DNA of 21,532 nt from Desulfurococcaceae archaeon (GCA_038824035.1 JAWBBW010000021.1:1-21532), one strand, 5' to 3'. Shown: positions 6,010 to 17,461, counted from the first letter of the stretch. Notes: generated from the sequence alone by a model not told the origin. Program-made: numbers and translations.

Positions 6010-8091
6010 GTGAGACGACTGAGGGTTGCTTTAGCTGGTCAACCCAATGTGGGTAAATCAACGCTTTTCAATGTATTGACCAAAGGACACGTGCTCGTAG
6101 TCAACTGGCCCGGTACCACTGTTGAACTCCACGAGGGCAGGTTGACTCATAATAACTGTGAGATAATCCTCGTAGATCTGCCGGGCATATATGGCTTATC
6201 ATACTTAACACTCGAGGAGAGAATAGCCCGTAGGTATATAGTTGAGGAAAGGCCCGATGTAATAGTGGTGTTGGTTGATTCCTTAGCCCTCGACAGGACT
6301 CTGCACTTGGCAATAGAGATCATGGAGCTCTCCTCCAACATCATTATAGCTATCACTAAGATCGATATCACTCATAGCAAGGGCATACACGTGAATTACG
6401 AGTTAATGGCCAGGAAACTCGGTGTCCCAGTGATCCCGTTGTCGGCTATAAAGGGGATTGGCATTGAGAGATTACTCCACGAGATCGCGAGATTTCACAT
6501 CATTCGTGGAGAACCATTGGTAATAGATTACGGCGTTTTAAACAACACCATTGAGAAAATGATATCGATGTTAAAGCCCGTAGAGCACTTGTTTAAATAC
6601 CCCTTGCGCTGGATTGTTGTCAAGTTCCTAGAAGGAGATGTAGAAATAGAGTCCTTGTTGAGAAACACCGTCATGGATTTATACGTTGATTTAACCGGGT
6701 TAAGGGAAAACGCCTCAAGGCTCGTAAACGAAGACCTCGCTGCTTACATATACAAGCGGAGATCAGCGTTTATCGAGAACTTGCTCCGAGATGTAGTGGT
6801 TAAAACAAAACTGGCTTTGACCAGGGAGAGTGGTTTATCCAAGTTGTTCTACAAGCAATATATAGGCCCATTGTTCTCGTTCATTTTCCTCATACTAGTG
6901 TTCTCGGTGGCGTTCTTCATCAATACAGGGTATCCATTGACAGCTTTACTGGAGTCTCTCGGCCGCGATGATCTAGCCGAATTGATCCACAGGTACACTC
7001 TTGGAGGCATTGTCGAGAAATCACTGGAAACCCTGTCAGAGTATTTGTATAGCCAGTTCAGTGAAACCCCTTTGACAAGGCTAGTTGTAGAAGGGGTTTT
7101 GGGTGGTGTCAGCGCCTTGTTGTTGTTTATACCACTCATAGCCATTGTGCTATTGTTCCTAGGAATTATCGAGGACTCTGGCTTATTGCCGAGAATCGCC
7201 GTTGGAATACATGGTTTAACCCAGTGGATTGGTCTATCCGGCCACGCGCTGTTACCTGTGACCGTGTCGCTTGGATGTAATGTACCCGGTGCTTTATCCA
7301 TAAGGGCTATTCCCAACAGCCTTGAGCGATTCAGGTTATTGGTGCTTATCCCATTCATACCATGTCAGGCAAGACTAGTCGTCTTACTTGCTTTATCGAC
7401 ATTTGGCGGAATCGCCGGTGTCTTATTAACACCGATCGCATATATCACAGCGTTCATGGTTTTCATCGTACTCAACTACTTGCTATACAGGTTATCGACT
7501 AAGCGCGGAGAGGAGACAGGGGTTGAATTATTACTGGAAATCCCTCCACTTCATAGGCCACATCCACGTGTCTTATGGTGGTTTACATGGTCTAATTTAA
7601 AGCACTTCATCATGAAGATAGGCTTATTGCTAGTTGTGTTAAATGTATTGACATGGCTATTGGCTAATACAACGCCTCAGTTAAACCTAGCCAACGATGT
7701 CGATGAGAGCATAGCTGCACATATCTCGAGGATTTTCACACCGTTATTAAGCCCACTGGGCATTCAAGGCGCAAATGCCTGGATAGTAGTGTTCGCGTTG
7801 ATTATGGGTTTCTTTGCAAAGGAGATCTTCATTTCAACACTACTCGTAGTGACCAAGAGCTACGGCGTGAAAGAGGCATTAATGGTTTTAAACATCACGC
7901 CTGCATCACTCGTGGCATTAGGGGTTTTCACAGTGCTCTATGTACCATGTGTTGCAACAGTGTTGACAATTTACGACGAGACGAGGAGCCTGAAGACAGT
8001 GCTGGCGAGCATAGCCATTATGTTAATAGTGGCATATTCATCATCGATCATAGCATACCACGTCTCAGCACTAGTAATGCCGGTTAAGTGA
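6010..8091 (+). CDS. feoB: Ferrous iron transport protein B
   Basis: G-domain motifs GQPNVGKS, NWPGTTVE, DLPG and TKID; membrane domain with EDSG..PR.A, GCNVP, PFIPC.ARL, LEIP, AKE and LY.PCVAT. Confidence 0.96.
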   Translation: MRRLRVALAGQPNVGKSTLFNVLTKGHVLVVNWPGTTVELHEGRLTHNNCEIILVDLPGIYGLSYLTLEERIARRYIVEERPDVIVVLVDSLALDRTLHLAIEIMELSSNIIIAITKIDITHSKGIHVNYELMARKLGVPVIPLSAIKGIGIERLLHEIARFHIIRGEPLVIDYGVLNNTIEKMISMLKPVEHLFKYPLRWIVVKFLEGDVEIESLLRNTVMDLYVDLTGLRENASRLVNEDLAAYIYKRRSAFIENLLRDVVVKTKLALTRESGLSKLFYKQYIGPLFSFIFLILVFSVAFFINTGYPLTALLESLGRDDLAELIHRYTLGGIVEKSLETLSEYLYSQFSETPLTRLVVEGVLGGVSALLLFIPLIAIVLLFLGIIEDSGLLPRIAVGIHGLTQWIGLSGHALLPVTVSLGCNVPGALSIRAIPNSLERFRLLVLIPFIPCQARLVVLLALSTFGGIAGVLLTPIAYITAFMVFIVLNYLLYRLSTKRGEETGVELLLEIPPLHRPHPRVLWWFTWSNLKHFIMKIGLLLVVLNVLTWLLANTTPQLNLANDVDESIAAHISRIFTPLLSPLGIQGANAWIVVFALIMGFFAKEIFISTLLVVTKSYGVKEALMVLNITPASLVALGVFTVLYVPCVATVLTIYDETRSLKTVLASIAIMLIVAYSSSIIAYHVSALVMPVK

Positions 8092-8138: not shown

Positions 8139-8213
8139 GGGCCCGTCGCCTAGCCAGGATAGGGCGCCGGCCTCCTAAGCCGGAGGCCCGGGGTTCGAAT
8201 CCCCGCGGGCCCG
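8139..8213 (+). tRNA. tRNA-Arg(CCT), intronless, CCA not encoded
   Basis: Acceptor stem GGGCCCG/CGGGCCC, anticodon arm CCGGC-CTCCTAA-GCCGG (CCT at 8174-8176), T arm CGGGG-TTCGAAT-CCCCG, discriminator G at 8213; short T-run follows. Confidence 0.97.
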
Positions 8214-8832: not shown

Positions 8833-9603
8833 TTGCCCTCGTGGGATGTTCACAGGGGCATCACTCTTGCGGCTTTATCAATGCTAGGGGATAATAAGCT
8901 GAGCGAGGACATGGTAAAACACCTGCTTGAAGGAGTAGTGGATCCTGATCGAGTGCCTGACAAGGAGCCGCGTCTACGCCTATCTAGGAGAGGAAATATC
9001 TACGCGTCGATGAGCTATGCGAGACATCATGGATATCAACGCGATCTCGTGGACTACTATTTTAATCTAGCACTCTATTATCACAGGAGAGGTGATGGGA
9101 GGAAATCAATGTTAATGCTCGGCAGAGCACTACACTATGCCCAGGACAGCTCACTGAGTAGGAGAAAACTCCTAGTAATCGATGTCCACGAGATCGAGGA
9201 GGATGTGATGAATAAGCTGGCCAACACTCCTCAGAGAGTGTTAGACCTGTGTAAAGGGGTTGTTGTGGATAGGAAAGAGATGTCTTCTCGAGGAGACGAA
9301 GCAGTATGCATAGCTCTCGAGAAAACAAAATCCATGCTCAAACGCTTCACCGAGGAGATAGGTAAAGCGATAGATATTCGAGCCCTGAGGAATAAAGTGA
9401 TAAAGATAAGGTTGTTGAAGACTCTCCTGGTTCTTGCCCTAACCATACCAGCGTTCATCAACCAGTTTGATCCCATGTTCATAGGAATGGCGTTTATAAC
9501 GTGCATAGCTGTATACGTATATAAACCAAGGACATATTACGAAGCAATGAGAGCTGGATTGATGATCGTGAAACCCATTGGGTATAAACCAGCGTATCCA
9601 TAG
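8833..9603 (+). CDS. Zn-dependent phospholipase C / P1-nuclease superfamily protein with C-terminal membrane hairpin
   Basis: N-terminal W-x-x-H (MPSWDVH), G-x3-PD (GVVDPD), HH, LGRALHYAQD and a later H-x3-E (HEIEE); two hydrophobic segments near the C-terminus; TTG start after AGGTGG. Confidence 0.65.
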   Translation: MPSWDVHRGITLAALSMLGDNKLSEDMVKHLLEGVVDPDRVPDKEPRLRLSRRGNIYASMSYARHHGYQRDLVDYYFNLALYYHRRGDGRKSMLMLGRALHYAQDSSLSRRKLLVIDVHEIEEDVMNKLANTPQRVLDLCKGVVVDRKEMSSRGDEAVCIALEKTKSMLKRFTEEIGKAIDIRALRNKVIKIRLLKTLLVLALTIPAFINQFDPMFIGMAFITCIAVYVYKPRTYYEAMRAGLMIVKPIGYKPAYP

Positions 9604-9711: not shown

Positions 9712-11772
9712 TTACGACGACAATATCAGTTCAACGGGGTAATACACGCATGCGCCTTGTCCACCCAGAGCTGTGCATAGTTCTAGTTTCAGCTTCACCA
9801 CCGCCATTTCATTCATTGCCGTGAAATACCCAGAGAGAGCTATGAAATTGTTACCGCCAAGGTTCAACTGCACTATACTCGTGAAGGTAGATACTGGTAC
9901 ACCGTTCCTGATGCTTATATTCGTAGAGCTCGTAATGCCCTCAATCCACATATCCAGGTTCAAAGCATATGAAGTGGTAAAAGCATCGAGTATTAGCCTA
10001 GCATACAAGACCTGGGTGGTGTTTAAACGTAGAAATCTAGTTGTCGTGTTAAACAACGATGCCCCCGATACTCGTAACGATACATTAGCACTAGTCTTAT
10101 TGGATCCCAGGTTTATGGATATCGAGCTCGTCGCCAAGGCGTAGACATCCCCACCAAGCACAGCATTGTCCAGTGGAACACTTAACCCCCCGCAAAGATA
10201 TGTATCGGGATATCTCACCAATATCTTTCCATCAATACCCGTGCCCACAACAAGGTCTCCAGTAACATTGAGGATGAATGCTGATGCCGGAGCCGTTGTC
10301 GAGTTAACCAAGTATCCCAGGTTATCCCAGACCTCAACCCTCATACCCGTGTAGAAACCCATGAAGTACAGGGATCGTGGGTCCACCGTGGATACTATGA
10401 AATCCTCGAACCTGAACCATCGGGGTGGAACAGCGTCTATTGTTACACCTGCGTAAGCTGGGGTGAACCTTGTATCCCCCGTATCGCTGGCTGTTAGGGT
10501 GGCTACTAGTGCTCCGGTATCGTCGTATATCCATAATGTGAAGGTGACTGCAGTTGCTGTTACAGTGTAGTTCAGTACGAGCGTGTACCACCTGGTAGCA
10601 CTGTAGCCTGGAACACTCGTACTGCCTATTAGTCTCCATCCTCCATCCCACTTCCAAACCTCGGCTCTGCTAGCGTAAACCGATATCTCGTAGAGTCTGC
10701 TCCTGTCAGCGTTCAACAGTCCTATTCCCTTGTAGCCATCCCATGTCTCTGCTCTAACCTTAACAGAGACCCAGAGAGAGGTGTAACCATCTATCCTCGT
10801 GTTCCAGTAGTACTGTGATGCCCTACCCACGCCACCGTCGTTGTCTCTTCCTCTGAGCGCATTCCCCTTGAAGCCTCCACCAGCTGATAACCCCCATACA
10901 CCCCCGTAGCTCGTCCACCCGGATACGGGGTATTCTTCGAAGTCCGTGTAGGTGAGTGCTCCTCTACTTGTTCTTGTGAGCGCTGTGCAGGTATAATTAT
11001 ATGGTAATGTTTCAAGTGTTGCTGGAGGTGGTTGTGGGAGTATAGTTAGAGTGGAGGGATAGTAGATGAAAACCGAGGCAAGGGATGAAAAGGCTAAGGT
11101 AATGATCATTGCGTAGACCAGGCCTTGCCTGACCTTATTGTATTGTGTATTGTGGCTTAAGATGTGTTTGGACAACTTCATTGAAACCAGCATGATGGAT
11201 GCGTAGGAAGTCGTGATTGCAGTGGCTACTAGTGTCAGCATCAACCAATTATTCAACGCTAACCCGAGGACACTTGTCCGCTCTAGCCTGATCCCAATGA
11301 ACGTTATGTCTCCAGCCAATGTCCTCAATGTAATGAAGTCCCCGATAAGGCTTTGAAACCTAGCCAAATCCATCATCATAGCCCTGTATATATAGCCGTT
11401 GAAAACTCCGTAAAGGAGAATTAGTGCTGTGGCACATCCAGAGACAAGCCCCGCTGTTAGCTGGAGTCTTTTCCTATAAATAATTGACAAGAATGAAACA
11501 ACTAGTATCGTGAGTGATGATATCGTAAATGATAGGGATACATGTCTTATGTAGTCTGTGTGAGGCATGTAAACTGGCTGTTGATCCACGAGATAGTATA
11601 GCCTGTAATCGAGGATTGAGTAATAGCCTTGTATATAGCCGTGGAAGTAATAGACAGGGAGCAAAGCCACCAGTAAATAAATAGACGATGCTATGACACA
11701 CGTCAACCCCGAGGTCAAAATAAGCCACTCGACTAGTCTTTTTAACCTGTTTTCACTTGTAGCCCAACCCAT
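9712..11772 (-). CDS. Membrane protein with internal pilin-like cleavage site, lectin-like beta-sandwich insert and split pilin domain; putative minor pilin / tip adhesin
   Basis: About 5 hydrophobic segments in residues 1-232, then SLA|SVFIYYP (233-239) matching ATA|SVFVYYP of the 194-aa protein; Trp/Tyr-rich domain at about 275-461; ISINLGSNKTSA matches IKVDIGANKTSA; ends CVYYPVELILSS. The CDS is secure, the function is inferred. Confidence 0.6.
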   Translation of the reverse strand: MGWATSENRLKRLVEWLILTSGLTCVIASSIYLLVALLPVYYFHGYIQGYYSILDYRLYYLVDQQPVYMPHTDYIRHVSLSFTISSLTILVVSFLSIIYRKRLQLTAGLVSGCATALILLYGVFNGYIYRAMMMDLARFQSLIGDFITLRTLAGDITFIGIRLERTSVLGLALNNWLMLTLVATAITTSYASIMLVSMKLSKHILSHNTQYNKVRQGLVYAMIITLAFSSLASVFIYYPSTLTILPQPPPATLETLPYNYTCTALTRTSRGALTYTDFEEYPVSGWTSYGGVWGLSAGGGFKGNALRGRDNDGGVGRASQYYWNTRIDGYTSLWVSVKVRAETWDGYKGIGLLNADRSRLYEISVYASRAEVWKWDGGWRLIGSTSVPGYSATRWYTLVLNYTVTATAVTFTLWIYDDTGALVATLTASDTGDTRFTPAYAGVTIDAVPPRWFRFEDFIVSTVDPRSLYFMGFYTGMRVEVWDNLGYLVNSTTAPASAFILNVTGDLVVGTGIDGKILVRYPDTYLCGGLSVPLDNAVLGGDVYALATSSISINLGSNKTSANVSLRVSGASLFNTTTRFLRLNTTQVLYARLILDAFTTSYALNLDMWIEGITSSTNISIRNGVPVSTFTSIVQLNLGGNNFIALSGYFTAMNEMAVVKLKLELCTALGGQGACVYYPVELILSS

Positions 11773-12854
11773 CTCCTATCACCCTGGTTGAACCAGTACA
11801 CGTAGGCGTATGCGTACTCGGCTTGCACTGGTGGCTCAATAACAACATATGAGAAGCCCTTGACGATCACTGTCTTATTGCTCCATGCCCAGGTGTTGTT
11901 GACAAGGTATCTCATCGCGATATCTATTACTACTGGGAAACAATTGGGGTTTTTCGCGATGAGAACGCCGTTCACTACGCTCAGCTCTGGGCTCAACCCA
12001 CCGACCAATAACTCGTATCTACCGCTGAGCCAGGCCACGTTGTTGAACTCTCCTTCAACCCATATCTCCAGGGGCACGCCGTTCTCAAACGCTCTCCGTA
12101 ATAACTCGTGATCAGGCTTCACGATCACGGTCTTATCGAGCACTGAGATTATTTCCACTGGTGTCGAGTTCACAACGACTCTTGCACTTGTCAATGACAA
12201 AGCACCTGTGTATTTTATGCTCACAGTGCACGTGGTGTAGTCCATGTAAACACCAGCCAGGTTCACAACTCGTACAATCAATTGCGATGGCATCACCGTT
12301 CTTGGAACAACTGCATAGACAGATGTCACTAGGAGAATCCAAACACACAACACGACGATATATAAAGAACCGATGACAGGTGTTTTAATGAAATCGCGGA
12401 GCGTATAGGCGATCACGGCTATTATCAAGGGTATCCAGAGCTCTCTGTGAATTATGAAAACAACTTTCCCCTTAACCATGTCCATGGAGATGGGGCTATC
12501 AGGCATATCTACGTTATCACCCTTTGTTACAACCATGGTTTTATCTCCACTAACTGTGTTCAAGTGTAGAAAACCCACAACCCTGTGAACCACGCAGTGG
12601 CTAGGAGTCACACAGTAAACCACTACATCGCCAACATTGAAATCCATGTTTAAGTAGATAACCATGTCTCCAATCCTAACGACCGGTTCCATGCTATCCG
12701 AGATAACCACTGACATCCCCATGATGTTCAAGTAACCGAGCCTCGAGAGAAGCGTAAACACAATGACAAGCATGGATAACAAGAAAAAGATACTTGAAAC
12801 AAGGTAAAGGGATTTAACAAAAAAACTTTTAAATCCAGCAAACCTAGCCTGCAT
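11742..12854 (-). CDS. Signal peptidase I, archaeal/ER/SipW type (S26B), with long C-terminal extension
   Basis: TM segment then SDSMEP (catalytic Ser), GD, VVHRV (His general base) and TKGDN..PD; followed by two more TM segments and about 185 aa of beta-rich sequence. Overlaps the next gene by 31 bp. Confidence 0.9.
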   Translation of the reverse strand: MQARFAGFKSFFVKSLYLVSSIFFLLSMLVIVFTLLSRLGYLNIMGMSVVISDSMEPVVRIGDMVIYLNMDFNVGDVVVYCVTPSHCVVHRVVGFLHLNTVSGDKTMVVTKGDNVDMPDSPISMDMVKGKVVFIIHRELWIPLIIAVIAYTLRDFIKTPVIGSLYIVVLCVWILLVTSVYAVVPRTVMPSQLIVRVVNLAGVYMDYTTCTVSIKYTGALSLTSARVVVNSTPVEIISVLDKTVIVKPDHELLRRAFENGVPLEIWVEGEFNNVAWLSGRYELLVGGLSPELSVVNGVLIAKNPNCFPVVIDIAMRYLVNNTWAWSNKTVIVKGFSYVVIEPPVQAEYAYAYVYWFNQGDRRWVGLQVKTG

Positions 12855-12860
12855 TCTAAA

Positions 12861-13445
12861 TTACCTTCCCACGGCTGGGTTCGCGGGCGGAGTCTCCGTT
12901 GACGGCGTGTACACCAGCTTAGCGCTCGCTGTGTAAGATGTCCCTGCGATGACTGTTCCCTCCGGTATTTTGACGTAGATGTCGATTTGCCAGACCTTAG
13001 TAGCTCCCAGTAGACCAATGCTTATTGGCTGGTTAATGCCTGGATTGGTTACATCGAGCTCTCCGACCTTGGTGTTATCTTCGTAGACGAAGAGCTTCAC
13101 GGTGCTATCTGCTGGCAGGTTGTTCGACACGGAGGTGAAAACAATGTAGACGTTCATCGCGTTGTCATCGTTGTTCACTATCCGTAGTACATCCTTGTAG
13201 TAGTTCTCCTGGTATGTTGGGTGGATCTCGATGCTCGCCGATGTCTTGTTGGCTCCAATGTCTACCTTTATCTGGTTTCCTGTGCCGATGTCGGGTTGAC
13301 CAGCGTTGCTACCCTGCTCGAACACGACTCCCGGTTCCACAGGTTGAGCCGTGATATTTAATGGATAGTAGACGAAAACCGATGCTGTTGCTATTGTCGT
13401 TGCGAGTATTAGTAATAAGGGGGTTATTAATGTCTTTTTATCCAT
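12861..13445 (-). CDS. Secreted beta-rich protein, putative major pilin of TasA/archaeal bundling pilus type
   Basis: 21-aa signal peptide (MDKK, hydrophobic core, A-T-A), mature start SVFVYYP, about 173-aa beta-strand-patterned body with no membrane anchor; 6 bp upstream of a SipW-type peptidase. Confidence 0.7.
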   Translation of the reverse strand: MDKKTLITPLLLILATTIATASVFVYYPLNITAQPVEPGVVFEQGSNAGQPDIGTGNQIKVDIGANKTSASIEIHPTYQENYYKDVLRIVNNDDNAMNVYIVFTSVSNNLPADSTVKLFVYEDNTKVGELDVTNPGINQPISIGLLGATKVWQIDIYVKIPEGTVIAGTSYTASAKLVYTPSTETPPANPAVGR

Positions 13446-13505
13446 GTTATCTATCCCTTGGTGGTTTATTTAATTCCCCGCTAAGATATATGAGGCATTG
13501 ACGTG

Positions 13506-13514
13506 TATATAAAA
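13506..13514 (-). promoter_or_regulatory. Putative TATA box of the pilin-peptidase-adhesin operon
   Basis: Minus strand reads TTTTATATA about 60 bp upstream of the ATG at 13445. Confidence 0.5.
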
Positions 13515-14110
13515 GCGGGGGTTACGGATTTCTCATATTTATATATCTAGCTAGGCCTAGAGACACGTGTCTTGCCTAGTTTTTACATATAACCGTGTCA
13601 GCTATGATCTAGGCTGTTCCCAATAAGCCATCACCATCTATATCCAAATACATAGCTATATCCCCTTGTTCACCGAGACTCGAAAACATCACTAAAACAC
13701 CTACAGAACGTTCCATCGCTTCTTATATCGGAGACCAACTCGCACGATCACATGAACTGATGTAGCTCTTAGGGCGTTTGAAGCGAATAACGCATCGGAT
13801 TCCACGTAATCGTGGCGTACATCTCCAGAAGGCCTGGGGGTTAAAGGGGTTGGATTCCTCTTTCACCGTTTCTAGCCCAGTAGCATTTTAGACAGCCGAT
13901 CACATCTGGGTTTCAAGGACAACAGTCGAGGCACCGTGGTGGTAGGTGTACCTTGGAACCTCGTGTATCTTTTCTTCGATAATGCTTCAGGCCCCCTCCT
14001 CGGGAAGTCTCTAAACAACAATACGATCGGAGATCGGCTTGAACACTATCACGGCGAGGTATTCATCGATTTTTTACCTAACAGCGCATACATTGAGAAC
14101 GGTGTTTGGT

Positions 14111-14950: not shown

Positions 14951-16264
14951 TCAATGCCCACGACGCAACTTAATCACCACAAGTATCATTGCTATCACAG
15001 CCACTAATACCCCTATGAGTATTAACATCTCTAGCCGCATATACCACGGTCTCTCGTATTCCAGGATAATCAATGTTAAGTGATATTCTTTCGTGGTATT
15101 TCCACTAGCCGCTATAAGCACTAATGTATATGACCCGCTTACCGCTTCCCGGGAGATATTGATGAGTAGCGTGGTCGATGCCGGCGGCATGACTGATTCC
15201 GGGTTGAAAGTGTATGAAACCCCTTTAGGTGTGTTTGTAATGCTCAGTGAGACTGGTTTCACGGGCTCTCCTTCACTTAAAACCACTACTCCTATGATAG
15301 CTGAACTGCCTCTGTAGACCTGGATATTACTGGGCTCTACTTGGATATTGAAATCAAATGGCTTCATCTCTCTGAAATTCGCTCTTAGACTTATCCGGCC
15401 ACATATAAAGAGCTCTGTTGGGTTAACATGTCTATCGTATGTCGAGCACTCTGCGTATATATCTGACCATTCCTCGAATACATATCCCTCACTCGGTATA
15501 GCCGTTATATATACATGTGTTCCATTATCAATCCAGTACTCGCCAGGAGAGGGATTGGTGATACCATCGCCCCTGCCAATCCCTATGTAAACCAGGTATT
15601 CCACGTGGTAATACCCTGTTAAAACACCGGGACCTGTTACTATTATAGTGGTGCAACCGGCCTCGTGATTGGCATATCTCTTATACCCAGTTGATTCCAT
15701 GAACTCCTCGAAACAATAAGTGTGTTGAGAACCCTTATCCCACCAATATGAGAATGGAAGGAGATCTATGTCTATGAATGCCCCGTCAACGGATACAGGT
15801 GCACGTGGAAATGCTATGTCGAGTCCAAGCCCCCTGGTCTCTATAACCCATAGGTATTGTACCCGGTACTCAGCTGTGATAACGCCGTCGACCTCGGGGA
15901 CAGATAACACGCCTCCCATCTCGGTTGCGATCCCATTCGTGGATCTCCAGGCATAGCGTTTATTCCCCGTGATCGATGGTATATATTCAGCCCATTGATA
16001 TGAATGTGTTGAACCAATACTCCAATTAAAGCTCACTGGCAAATCCACGACACGGTAATCCACGTCATCAATGGTTAGGACAATGGTATCTGGTGAAACA
16101 TCTACCCCGACCCCGGTGATTGAGAAAGTTATAGTTACCACCTCTTGTTGAGGTATTGCCAGGCATCCATGTATCTGTAACACTAATACATGTAACAGGG
16201 AAAGGCAGATCAGCAGATTTAGAAAACAGGCAATGGTTTTAGACAAATTAAGCCCCTTGTACAT
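14951..16264 (-). CDS. Cell-surface protein with tandem beta-repeats (divergent InlB B-repeat-like), Ig-like domain and C-terminal membrane anchor
   Basis: N-terminal hydrophobic signal; repeats LPVSFNWSIGSTHSY / LPFSYWWDKGSQHTY; G.TNPSPG.YW...GT.V.ITAIP.EGY.F..WS motif; terminal TM helix plus KLRRGH basic tail. Confidence 0.72.
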   Translation of the reverse strand: MYKGLNLSKTIACFLNLLICLSLLHVLVLQIHGCLAIPQQEVVTITFSITGVGVDVSPDTIVLTIDDVDYRVVDLPVSFNWSIGSTHSYQWAEYIPSITGNKRYAWRSTNGIATEMGGVLSVPEVDGVITAEYRVQYLWVIETRGLGLDIAFPRAPVSVDGAFIDIDLLPFSYWWDKGSQHTYCFEEFMESTGYKRYANHEAGCTTIIVTGPGVLTGYYHVEYLVYIGIGRGDGITNPSPGEYWIDNGTHVYITAIPSEGYVFEEWSDIYAECSTYDRHVNPTELFICGRISLRANFREMKPFDFNIQVEPSNIQVYRGSSAIIGVVVLSEGEPVKPVSLSITNTPKGVSYTFNPESVMPPASTTLLINISREAVSGSYTLVLIAASGNTTKEYHLTLIILEYERPWYMRLEMLILIGVLVAVIAMILVVIKLRRGH

Positions 16265-16789: not shown

Positions 16790-17461
16790 TTAATCAATGC
16801 ATTTAACGAAAATAAACCTGGCAACTTGAACCGGGATCTCGACGATATCTTTTCCCACTTGTTTTACGCGAATGGCTTTTTCATCTTTATTGACAACTTC
16901 GAACACCGATTCCAAAGTGATGTGTATTCCACGTAGATATTCCAAGGCGCTCAGGAACTCACCTGCTATCTTCTTGACAACACACATAACTCCTTCATCC
17001 ACATCGTTTAGATTAACTAGCTCTGCCTCGTCCTCCACGTCTATGCCCGGTATTTTATTGCCATGTGGACAATGCTTGGGCTTCCCCAGCACGTTGTAAA
17101 TTCTCTCGATAATGATATCCGGCAAGTGCTCCAGGCTGTGAGCGTAGATATGGGATTCAACTAGGTCAAAGCCGAGCATCGTGTTTAGAAATGCCTCAGC
17201 GATCCTGTGTTTCCTAATTATCTGCTCCGCGATATCTTTGCCCTTTTCCGTTAAAACAGTGTACTTGTACTTAATCCTTTTAACCAACCCCTTTGACTCA
17301 AGACCCTTTATCACCTTGGAAACCGTTGCAGGCGTGACGCCCAGTTCGCTGGCTATGTCGGTTGTCCTAGCGTATCCAAACACCTCTTTAAGCCTATATA
17401 TAGTGACAAGATAATCCTCGTAACGTATATGCTTAGAGCCCTCTTTTCTTATCGAACCCAC
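16790..17461 (-). CDS. DtxR/MntR-family metal-dependent transcriptional repressor with C-terminal FeoA-like domain
   Basis: EDYL..IY.L, winged HTH (TTDIASELGVTPATVS), RKHR.AE.FL, LEH and CPHGN.IP motifs, followed by an SH3/FeoA-like tail. Confidence 0.93.
   Translation of the reverse strand: MGSIRKEGSKHIRYEDYLVTIYRLKEVFGYARTTDIASELGVTPATVSKVIKGLESKGLVKRIKYKYTVLTEKGKDIAEQIIRKHRIAEAFLNTMLGFDLVESHIYAHSLEHLPDIIIERIYNVLGKPKHCPHGNKIPGIDVEDEAELVNLNDVDEGVMCVVKKIAGEFLSALEYLRGIHITLESVFEVVNKDEKAIRVKQVGKDIVEIPVQVARFIFVKCID

Follow-up and report, generated by a model that had tools for sequence, protein, structure and literature searches.

An archaeal operon that probably encodes a thread-type donor-strand filament, with a signal peptidase of its own and a minor pilin that bears a lectin domain and is fused to a membrane module

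The window analyzed here is a 21,532-nucleotide stretch of DNA from a Desulfurococcaceae archaeon (GCA_038824035.1, JAWBBW010000021.1:1-21532), whose source genome comprises 1.33 Mb in 29 contigs. Between positions 9712 and 13445 of the window, three genes are located on the minus strand, which code for a secreted protein of 194 amino acids (aa; 12861-13445), a signal peptidase I (SPase I) of 370 aa (11742-12854) and a large membrane protein of 686 aa (9712-11772). The open reading frame (ORF) calls confirmed the tight coupling that had been noted in an earlier, sequence-only reading of the stretch, with a gap of 6 bp between the first and the second gene (12855-12860) and an overlap of 31 bp between the second and the third (11742-11772). 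As that reading had also foreseen, the public records name the three products hypothetical protein, signal peptidase I and hypothetical protein. An AT-rich stretch upstream of the first gene (13446-13570, minus strand), in which TATA-like runs can be seen by eye, is a possible promoter. Based on sequence comparisons and structural models, we propose that the operon probably encodes a thread-type surface filament, which is held together by donor-strand complementation and comes with its own processing enzyme. Most likely, this filament is thin and adhesive.

The 194-aa protein has a single N-terminal hydrophobic segment (aa 5-29, Kyte-Doolittle) and lacks a C-terminal anchor, and its AlphaFold2 model (mean predicted local distance difference test score (pLDDT) of 92.6) is all-beta beyond residue 40, in line with the small, anchorless secreted beta-protein described earlier. 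Residues 1-21 (13383-13445, minus strand) form the predicted signal peptide, which would leave Ser22 as the mature N-terminus, and the predicted donor-strand segment of this putative major pilin lies around aa 22-37. As a single sequence, the protein had no match in Pfam (E up to 1), NCBIfam or the PDB, and only the profile of its family reached a solved relative, the Sulfolobus acidocaldarius thread. An exhaustive HMMER search yielded 107 cluster representatives with E<=1e-3, of which 82 had E<=1e-10, and the family alignment (A1) used here contains 72 sequences, namely the window protein and 71 near-full-length matches. Its most conserved parts are the A↓S-V-F-V-Y-Y-P site (the arrow marks the predicted cleavage position), a GSNAG loop, the motif HPTYQxxYY and the C-terminal LIYSP..ETPP. 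The A1 profile matched the thread protein Saci_0406 (7pnb_A) with an E-value of 3.4e-12 and 49.9 bits over profile positions 3-186 and chain residues 2-199, and in the hidden Markov model (HMM) alignment the thread cleavage site A↓DVIYYYQ falls onto A↓sVFVYYP of the pilin family, i.e. onto Ala21↓Ser22. Foldseek searches with the pilin model likewise placed 7pnb first (E 3e-8, template modelling scores of 0.64/0.68) and AbpA, the subunit of the archaeal bundling pili (ABP) of Pyrobaculum calidifontis, second (E 2.8e-6). With VIA-align, 7pnb was the top of 986 chains (Z 15.4, root-mean-square deviation (rmsd) 2.6, 161 of 183 residues aligned), AbpA (7ueg) was second-best with a Z of 11.5, and the scores drop to about 7 for Hyper2, Tafi and CanA, the Natrinema Tafi pilin 9p0a reaching Z 6.8. 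Because of these profile, Foldseek and VIA-align results, we assign the 194-aa protein, at the level of sequence and model, to the thread/ABP group of donor-strand pilins.

The sequence-only reading had called the system TasA- or bundling-pilus-like and had pointed to TasA, AbpA and cannula subunits for a structural comparison. The donor-strand pilin fold and the kinship with AbpA stand, whereas the thread is the nearest relative in both structure searches and TasA would be related at the level of the fold only, its fibre (8aur_A) ranking 46th in the VIA-align comparison with a Z of 5.1, an rmsd of 3.4 and 119 aligned residues, values that a common beta-sandwich arrangement can also give. The label 'TasA-like' thus fits this pilin only in the wide sense of the TasA superfamily that has been put forward in print. 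A scan of the 72 pilin family members yielded 36 Pfam families, and PF12389 (Peptidase_M73) was not among the 25 that are listed. The nearly invariant Asn47 of the pilin was considered as a thread-like isopeptide residue; an insertion near thread Asn57 leaves the equivalence unfixed, and we make no claim for it.

The product of the second gene starts with a transmembrane (TM) helix, which is followed by the catalytic domain (about aa 45-135, 12450-12722, minus strand), two further TM helices (aa 130-188) and an extracellular C-terminal domain of about 185 aa (aa 186-370, 11745-12299). It passes TIGR02228, the model for SPase I of the archaeal/endoplasmic reticulum type (61.2 bits, cut-off 51.85), and at least 90% of 31 aligned homologues retain the motifs S-M-x-P (Ser54), H-R (His90-Arg91) and TKGD (its Asp), so that the protein is indeed a Ser/His signal peptidase by its sequence. 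The more specific claim of a SipW-type enzyme had to be given up, the SipW model NF046067 giving 36.1 bits with a cut-off of 190, and we class the 370-aa protein as an archaeal SPase I rather than as a SipW orthologue. One might still ask whether the operon as a whole is orthologous to tapA-sipW-tasA of Bacillus. This would account for a set of three genes with a Ser/His-type peptidase that processes both partners, and the accessible text of two preprints proposes a 'TasA superfamily' that includes the thread family (10.64898/2026.01.04.697558; 10.1101/2024.12.30.630787). However, with a SipW score so far below the cut-off, a pilin that has no Pfam match and resembles TasA in fold only, and no TapA among the Foldseek rows shown for the large protein, such an orthology is barely plausible. 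The last of these points has little weight, as TapA, TasA and AbpB are all missing from rows that are filled by matches to the lectin domain of the large protein. The C-terminal domain of the peptidase matched no known family, with 0 PDB profile matches and no usable match in the ESM Atlas. A pilin-like, chaperone-type nature of this domain was dropped at the sequence level, where hhalign against the pilin family returned a probability of 0.3%. A word-based search with the peptidase found 27 close relatives only and no bridge to TafD, the peptidase of the Tafi system.

The source genome carries three SPase I genes, which code for a 155-aa form, a 399-aa form and the operon's 370-aa copy. The 155-aa form (103 bits) shares 37% identity with the catalytic core of the operon peptidase and is presumably the housekeeping enzyme; the operon peptidase is therefore an extra copy. 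In the 399-aa form, a C-terminal catalytic domain lies behind a long hydrophobic N-terminal part, and a gene for a 348-aa DUF5305 protein (E 3.1e-15) follows directly. Such an arrangement is on record for Tafi and AbpX loci, and with this gene pair (contig C8, L050:379-2628, minus strand) the organism may therefore produce donor-strand fibres of two kinds. The operon in the window could itself be thought of as a Tafi/AbpX-type locus, in which a TasA-like pilin is accompanied by a signal peptidase with several TM helices and by an accessory DUF5305 protein. In the accessible descriptions, these systems also combine a donor-strand pilin with a dedicated SPase I and tip or minor subunits, and TafD resembles the operon peptidase in its two domains and extra TM helices. 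A Pfam scan, however, gave no DUF5305 match in any of the three operon proteins, the pilin is much nearer to the thread than to the Natrinema Tafi pilin, and the DUF5305 protein of the genome sits with the 399-aa SPase on another contig. In addition, the Zestosphaera homologue of the operon pilin (A0A2R7Y817) has an accession that differs from that of the AbpX pilin named in the accessible text of the preprint. We regard a Tafi/AbpX-type locus at this site as very improbable.

The 686-aa protein contains five hydrophobic segments (aa 13-44, 77-100, 103-125, 168-196 and 216-239, Kyte-Doolittle), and its AlphaFold2 model has a mean pLDDT of 91.2. The sequence-only reading was thus right to call it a large membrane protein, a description that needs to be refined: from sequence and model, it appears to be a 4-TM accessory module joined to a minor pilin that bears a lectin domain. 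The N-terminal module (aa 1-212, 11137-11772, minus strand) consists of four TM helices with extracellular beta-hairpin loops at aa 41-60 and 146-165, and conserved motifs, P..G...G..Y and T.AG, are found in these loops. No conserved catalytic-type residues and no Pfam match were detected in it, and the ESM Atlas returned unnamed archaeal clusters only (0.80-0.81, below the tool's lead level). An enzymatic role of the module, which we considered, is thus unsupported, and in view of the missing catalytic-type residues a role as a scaffold or platform is more likely. The fifth TM helix (aa 213-232, 11077-11136) resembles an internal signal peptide and ends at the predicted site Ala232↓Ser233. 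It is followed by the predicted donor strand of the minor pilin, which starts with SVFIYYP (aa 233-250, 11023-11076) and was assigned from the complex model described below; in the AlphaFold2 monomer, where the five helices take up residues 1-234 and residues 235-250 are a low-confidence part, this stretch has a low pLDDT (64-71) and no assigned strand. Structure comparison identified aa 271-464 (10381-10962) as a concanavalin-A-like lectin or carbohydrate-binding module (CBM) domain, for which VIA-align found CBM66 (4b1m) with Z 19.2, rmsd 2.1 and 153 aligned residues and legume lectins with Z about 16, and the Foldseek matches include the lectin domains of the adhesins Aap and SraP. A small beta domain (about aa 467-555 in the AlphaFold2 model) and a beta-sandwich of pilin-like appearance (aa 560-686 plus the stop codon, 9712-10095) complete the protein.

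A search with residues 225-686 of the large protein returned 103 homologues, which fall into two length groups. Long forms of about 685-750 aa are built as the operon protein is, and short forms of about 450-500 aa have an ordinary N-terminal signal peptide exactly at the position of its fifth helix. The pilin HMM matches the region of the C-terminal domain in 7 of 29 tip/large ORFs ('tip' being the ectodomain subunit), and the operon's own large protein gives a weak match (i-E 0.0034, aa 546-568). Since the ectodomain has a pilin-like signal peptide and donor strand at one end and these pilin HMM matches in its terminal domain, it looks like a pilin into which a large, lectin-bearing insertion has been placed, a view that is partly supported. 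Homologues of the large protein are present in the cultured Ignisphaera aggregans, Thermogladius calderae and Fervidicoccus fontis, which makes the predictions set out below testable.

What ties the two outer proteins together is a common sequence behind a hydrophobic helix, ASVFVYYP at residues 21-28 of the pilin and ASVFIYYP at residues 232-239 of the large protein, which the sequence-only reading had already picked out. Aligning the two families with hhalign paired pilin residues 3-45 with residues 212-256 of the large protein (95.9% probability, E 6.5e-9), and on account of this profile-profile alignment the likeness goes beyond chance. Ala is found at position -1 in 65 of 72 pilins, in 31 of 32 long-form and in 19 of 26 short-form homologues of the large protein. 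The long forms all share a Tyr at +5 and a Pro at +7 (32 of 32), and A↓S-[VI]-F-x-Y-Y-P is kept in long and short forms alike. From these patterns, we infer cleavage after Ala21 in the pilin and after Ala232 in the large protein. The internal cleavage is suggested by the Ala at -1 in 31 of 32 fused forms, by the resemblance of helix 5 to signal peptides and by the presence of separate genes in most loci.

To model a complex of the predicted mature subunits, residues 22-194 of the pilin and residues 233-686 of the large protein were combined as a heteromer, a separate alignment being supplied for each. All three runs scored 0.91, compared with 0.00 for the best of 3 controls; 58 of 80 solved complexes attain this mark, as do 2 of 110 mismatched pairs, counts that are only rough guides when own alignments are used. 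Contacts agree to at least 98% between the runs, and the partner pLDDT is at least 92. Residues 233-250 of the large protein all touch the pilin strands 68-84 and 168-182 and lie between them, and the interface also includes residues 556-561, 586-588 and 667-679 from the C-terminal sandwich. The modelled geometry is that of donor-strand complementation and supports binding of the two proteins. This agrees with the earlier suggestion that the mature N-terminus serves as a donor strand, which is supported, as a prediction, by the shared motif and, for the strand of the large protein in the pilin groove, by the model. As the N-terminal segment of the pilin itself (22-37) lies outside the interface, it would be free for a further subunit.

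With a 17-row pilin alignment, one genome per species was scanned for the pattern, which led to 36 loci encoding a relative (L013-L048), and these were mapped with four purpose-built HMMs (pilin, peptidase, 4-TM module, ectodomain). In 32 of the 36, a peptidase gene lies downstream of the pilin gene on the same strand; at the four remaining loci (L019, L031, L045, L048), the contig breaks off inside the pilin or tip gene or shortly behind it. Of the 32 peptidase-bearing loci, 27 have the 4-TM module: as a stand-alone gene for 170-231 aa directly after the peptidase gene in 18, fused to the tip in eight (L013, L015, L016, L018, L020, L022, L023, L024) and, once (L014), as an ORF of its own that shortly precedes the tip ORF. 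Three of the five loci without it stop at the peptidase (L017, L028, L043); the other two are L041 and L042. The usual gene order is pilin, tip, peptidase and 4-TM, and the subclade of the window has pilin, peptidase and the 4-TM-tip fusion. Several loci are near copies of one another, so that these counts overstate independence. The expectation of a self-contained, co-conserved filament module with a dedicated peptidase is supported by them. The carriers are Desulfurococcales-like, Acidilobaceae, Zestosphaera, Nezhaarchaeota, Methanomethylicia and Nitrososphaeria-labelled genomes. Profile matches at E<=1e-5, weaker and partial ones included, were obtained in 112 of 301 sampled genomes of the order and in 43 of 92 genera.

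Five further loci (L053-L057) with weak full-length pilin matches were taken from larger genomes, and L053 is the locus of the solved thread, its pilin matching 7pnb with 433 bits over residues 1-206. In a quick maximum-likelihood tree of 40 pilins, from which the partial-ORF loci L018, L019 and L048 were left out, the L053-L057 pilins are on one side of a long branch and the 35 others on the opposite side (Shimodaira-Hasegawa-like approximate likelihood ratio test (SH-aLRT) 99), and all included fused loci fall within one 11-row group (SH-aLRT 95). The comparison of thread neighbourhoods was one-way, with the HMMs of the window clade run against the thread loci. With hhalign, neither the pilin family against a 179-aa neighbour in the thread locus (18.6% probability) nor the tip family against a 442-aa neighbour (0.3%) gave a significant result. 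The 442-aa protein is encoded two genes downstream of the thread pilin (L053:4825-6153, minus strand) and has a signal peptide and then an aromatic-rich, donor-strand-like N-terminus; it could be a minor thread subunit.

Some of the mapped loci deserve a separate mention. L041 and L042 (8702-9115) are near-identical and are labelled Nitrososphaeria and Geothermarchaeota; they contain the pilin, a 402-aa protein with a pilin-like N-terminus and a peptidase ORF of 137 aa that amounts to the catalytic core alone, and no 4-TM module was found in them though downstream sequence is present. The pilins of L022 and L023, from bins labelled Desulfurococcaceae and Nezhaarchaeota, are nearly identical (end branches of 0.076 and 0.09), which indicates a recent transfer of the module or a mis-binned contig. 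In the source genome itself, a solo pilin paralogue of 195 aa with 54% identity is encoded on another contig (C17:23808-24332; L052:6797-7384, plus strand). Its N-terminus is divergent beyond the signal peptide, and no peptidase, tip or 4-TM gene is among the ORFs listed at this locus.

Several points weigh against the proposal that the operon encodes a thread-type filament with its own machinery. Asp, the first mature residue of threads (Asp24), is not kept in this family; at position +1, the six commonest residues of the 72 pilins are Ser (30), Gly (17), Ala (16), Asn (4), Thr (2) and Trp (1), a list without Asp. Within about 6 kb of the pilin in L053-L057, nothing is matched at E<=0.1 by the clade's HMMs for the peptidase, the 4-TM module and the tip. 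The system is patchy, being found in 4 of 16 other genomes of the same genus with a single-protein query, and no RNA run is among the listed runs that contain the locus. Given the solved homologous thread polymer, the score of 0.91 obtained for the complex may in part reflect model memory. Finally, no filament has been seen for the clade, and one could imagine that the locus makes none, its genes encoding two glycan-binding proteins, secreted or on the surface, that remain monomers and share a specialised signal peptidase. Residues 22-39 of the pilin monomer are fairly confident in the AlphaFold2 model (block means of 84 and 96) and have no assigned strand, so that self-complementation would be possible. 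Against this, the pilin is homologous over its full length to a solved polymeric pilin, the motif of the N-terminal strand is strictly conserved in both proteins, and the strand is inserted in the complex model. We consider a system without a filament improbable.

For the filament that we propose, polymerisation, polarity, sugar binding and whatever the 4-TM module and the peptidase's C-terminal domain contribute might fit together as follows. The pilin would be exported by the Sec pathway and cut after Ala21, and its new N-terminus, SVFVYYP, would fill the open groove of the next subunit. The peptidase would recognise the shared A↓S-V-F-x-Y-Y-P site on both substrates. In the large protein, helix 5 would act as an internal signal peptide, and a cut after Ala232 would free a 454-aa subunit composed of the donor strand, the lectin domain and the pilin-like C-terminal domain. 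The donor strand of this minor pilin would dock in the groove of a major pilin; as the strand goes to the first major pilin, the minor pilin would sit at one end of the fibre, prime it and bear the adhesin. We tentatively speculate, as a possibility that goes well beyond the proposal of a filament, that cleavage is the assembly switch. The lectin subunit would be released from its polytopic precursor and the pilins would wait as tethered precursors with an open groove, and each freed N-terminus would enter the next tethered subunit. Growth would then take place at the base with the adhesin at the tip, and the 4-TM module and the extra domain of the peptidase would form the platform.

It is also conceivable, if rather doubtful, that the large protein remains uncleaved and serves as membrane anchor and nucleator at the base, with pilins added distally and the lectin domain held close to the glycosylated envelope of the cell itself. 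The strand donor in the complex model is the large protein, and the N-terminus of the pilin is free, a geometry that fits the base as well as the tip; a fibre could simply be anchored through fusion to a polytopic membrane module, and the accessible part of the thread paper calls the anchoring and the polarity of threads unknown (PMC9715654). However, 31 of the 32 fused forms have kept Ala at -1 with small or aliphatic residues at -3, the short forms begin, at the corresponding position, with an ordinary N-terminal signal peptide that can be cleaved, and the 4-TM module is a separate protein in 18 loci, so that tethering cannot be a general mechanism.

The neighbours of the operon are unrelated housekeeping genes, among them feoB (6010-8091, plus strand), the gene for a DtxR-type iron-dependent repressor with a FeoA domain (16790-17461, minus strand), an EamA transporter gene and tRNA-Arg (CCT; 8139-8213), and the operon therefore appears to be self-contained. 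All sequencing runs that contain the operon stretch are labelled as hot-spring metagenomes. Convergent with the end of the operon, a gene at 8833-9603 (plus strand) codes for a 256-aa protein with a C-terminal hydrophobic segment, whose match to Zn-dependent phospholipase C is below threshold (20.1 bits, cut-off 26.8). About 1.5 kb upstream of the operon, with the EamA gene on the opposite strand in between, lies a gene for a 437-aa surface protein (14951-16264, minus strand) with an N-terminal signal-like helix, a C-terminal TM helix and a divergent InlB B-repeat domain (PF18998, E 3e-6). Except for one weak match in L046, this protein is not co-conserved with the module.

The closest of the known systems is the S. 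acidocaldarius thread (Saci_0406; 7pnb, 8rzl). The pilins are homologous over their full length and have in common an N-terminal tail with a two-sheet beta head, a Sec/SPase I signal peptide, right behind it an aromatic-rich strand at the N-terminus that is the donor strand in threads (with a YYY motif) and the predicted one here, and N-glycosylation sequons, of which the operon pilin has 2 and the tip subunit 9. They differ in that the solved locus is without homologues of the peptidase, the 4-TM module and the lectin tip within about 6 kb, and in their first mature residue, which is Ser, Gly or Ala in the operon pilin family. In the accessible text of the thread paper, Asp24 is said to be conserved throughout the thread homologues and to form an isopeptide bond, a generic peptidase is assumed, saci_0405, -0407 and -0408 are said to co-occur, and the assembly pathway is called unknown along with anchoring and polarity (PMC9715654). 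The clade described here ties a thread-type pilin to three conserved parts, namely a peptidase dedicated to it, a small protein with four TM helices and a minor pilin that bears a lectin domain, and these are concrete candidates for the missing assembly machinery of threads; in the subclade of the window, a natural gene fusion even links the first subunit to the membrane module. If the cleavage switch outlined above were true, it would supply the assembly pathway and the polarity on which the accessible thread text has no answer. Thread homologues have been mapped across archaeal genomes in the accessible part of the cannula preprint (10.1101/2024.12.30.630787). In the literature searched, we found no description of a thread-family locus that has a peptidase of its own, a 4-TM module or a lectin-tip fusion, and supplementary synteny figures may show such loci.

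With the ABP of P. calidifontis (AbpA/AbpB, 7ueg), the operon shares a predicted donor-strand fibre, a larger secreted partner and, according to the accessible description, 4-TM proteins in the operon. AbpB has been proposed to initiate assembly and is described there as TapA-like, and the accessible text notes that no dedicated peptidase is found near the ABP operon (PMC9245690). In contrast to this TapA-like partner, the one encoded here carries a concanavalin-A/CBM66-like domain. Tafi (pilins TafA/E, TafD, and TafG with DUF5305), so far as its accessible description goes, resembles the operon in its dedicated SPase I, which has additional TM helices and another extracellular domain, and in having variable tip or minor subunits within the same cluster. 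TafD is reported there to be needed genetically for pilin processing and fibres (PMC11821415). The differences lie in the distant pilin, in a Tat signal as opposed to the Sec signal of this operon and in DUF5305 as opposed to the 4-TM module in its place. Sec-type relatives of Tafi are described, again in the accessible texts, in Thermococcales, Archaeoglobales and Sulfolobales (PMC11821415; PMC12337348). The AbpX loci of Pyrodictium abyssi, Zestosphaera tikiterensis and others share with the operon a pilin gene followed by a TIGR02228 peptidase and predicted donor-strand tip or minor subunits, whereas their peptidase is described, in the text available, as a ten-TM protein with a DUF5305 partner, a type that the source genome has elsewhere. 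The same text states that AbpX, AbpA, TafE and TasA genes often adjoin an SPase I gene, in a sentence that does not name the thread family (10.64898/2026.01.04.697558).

In FimH, the tip adhesin of a chaperone-usher pilus, a groove is present and a donor strand is lacking. Like FimH and CfaE, the subunit proposed here combines a lectin with a pilin domain at one end of a donor-strand fibre, and CfaE/CfaB fusions are among the Foldseek matches of the large protein; it differs from them in that it keeps a conserved donor strand and comes with neither chaperone nor usher. In B. subtilis, the TasA fibre forms by donor-strand exchange, as stated in the accessible text of the ABP paper (PMC9245690), and tapA-sipW-tasA, as described, also has a Ser/His-type peptidase gene between the genes of the major subunit and the minor partner, both of which the enzyme processes, whereas no orthology was detected for any of the three operon proteins. 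As donor-strand fibres with their own signal peptidase are already in print for TasA, Tafi and AbpX, the advance made here is the extension to the thread family and not a new principle. What sets the operon apart from the known thread locus is that its thread-type pilin comes with a signal peptidase of its own and with a putative sugar-binding tip subunit fused to a membrane protein.

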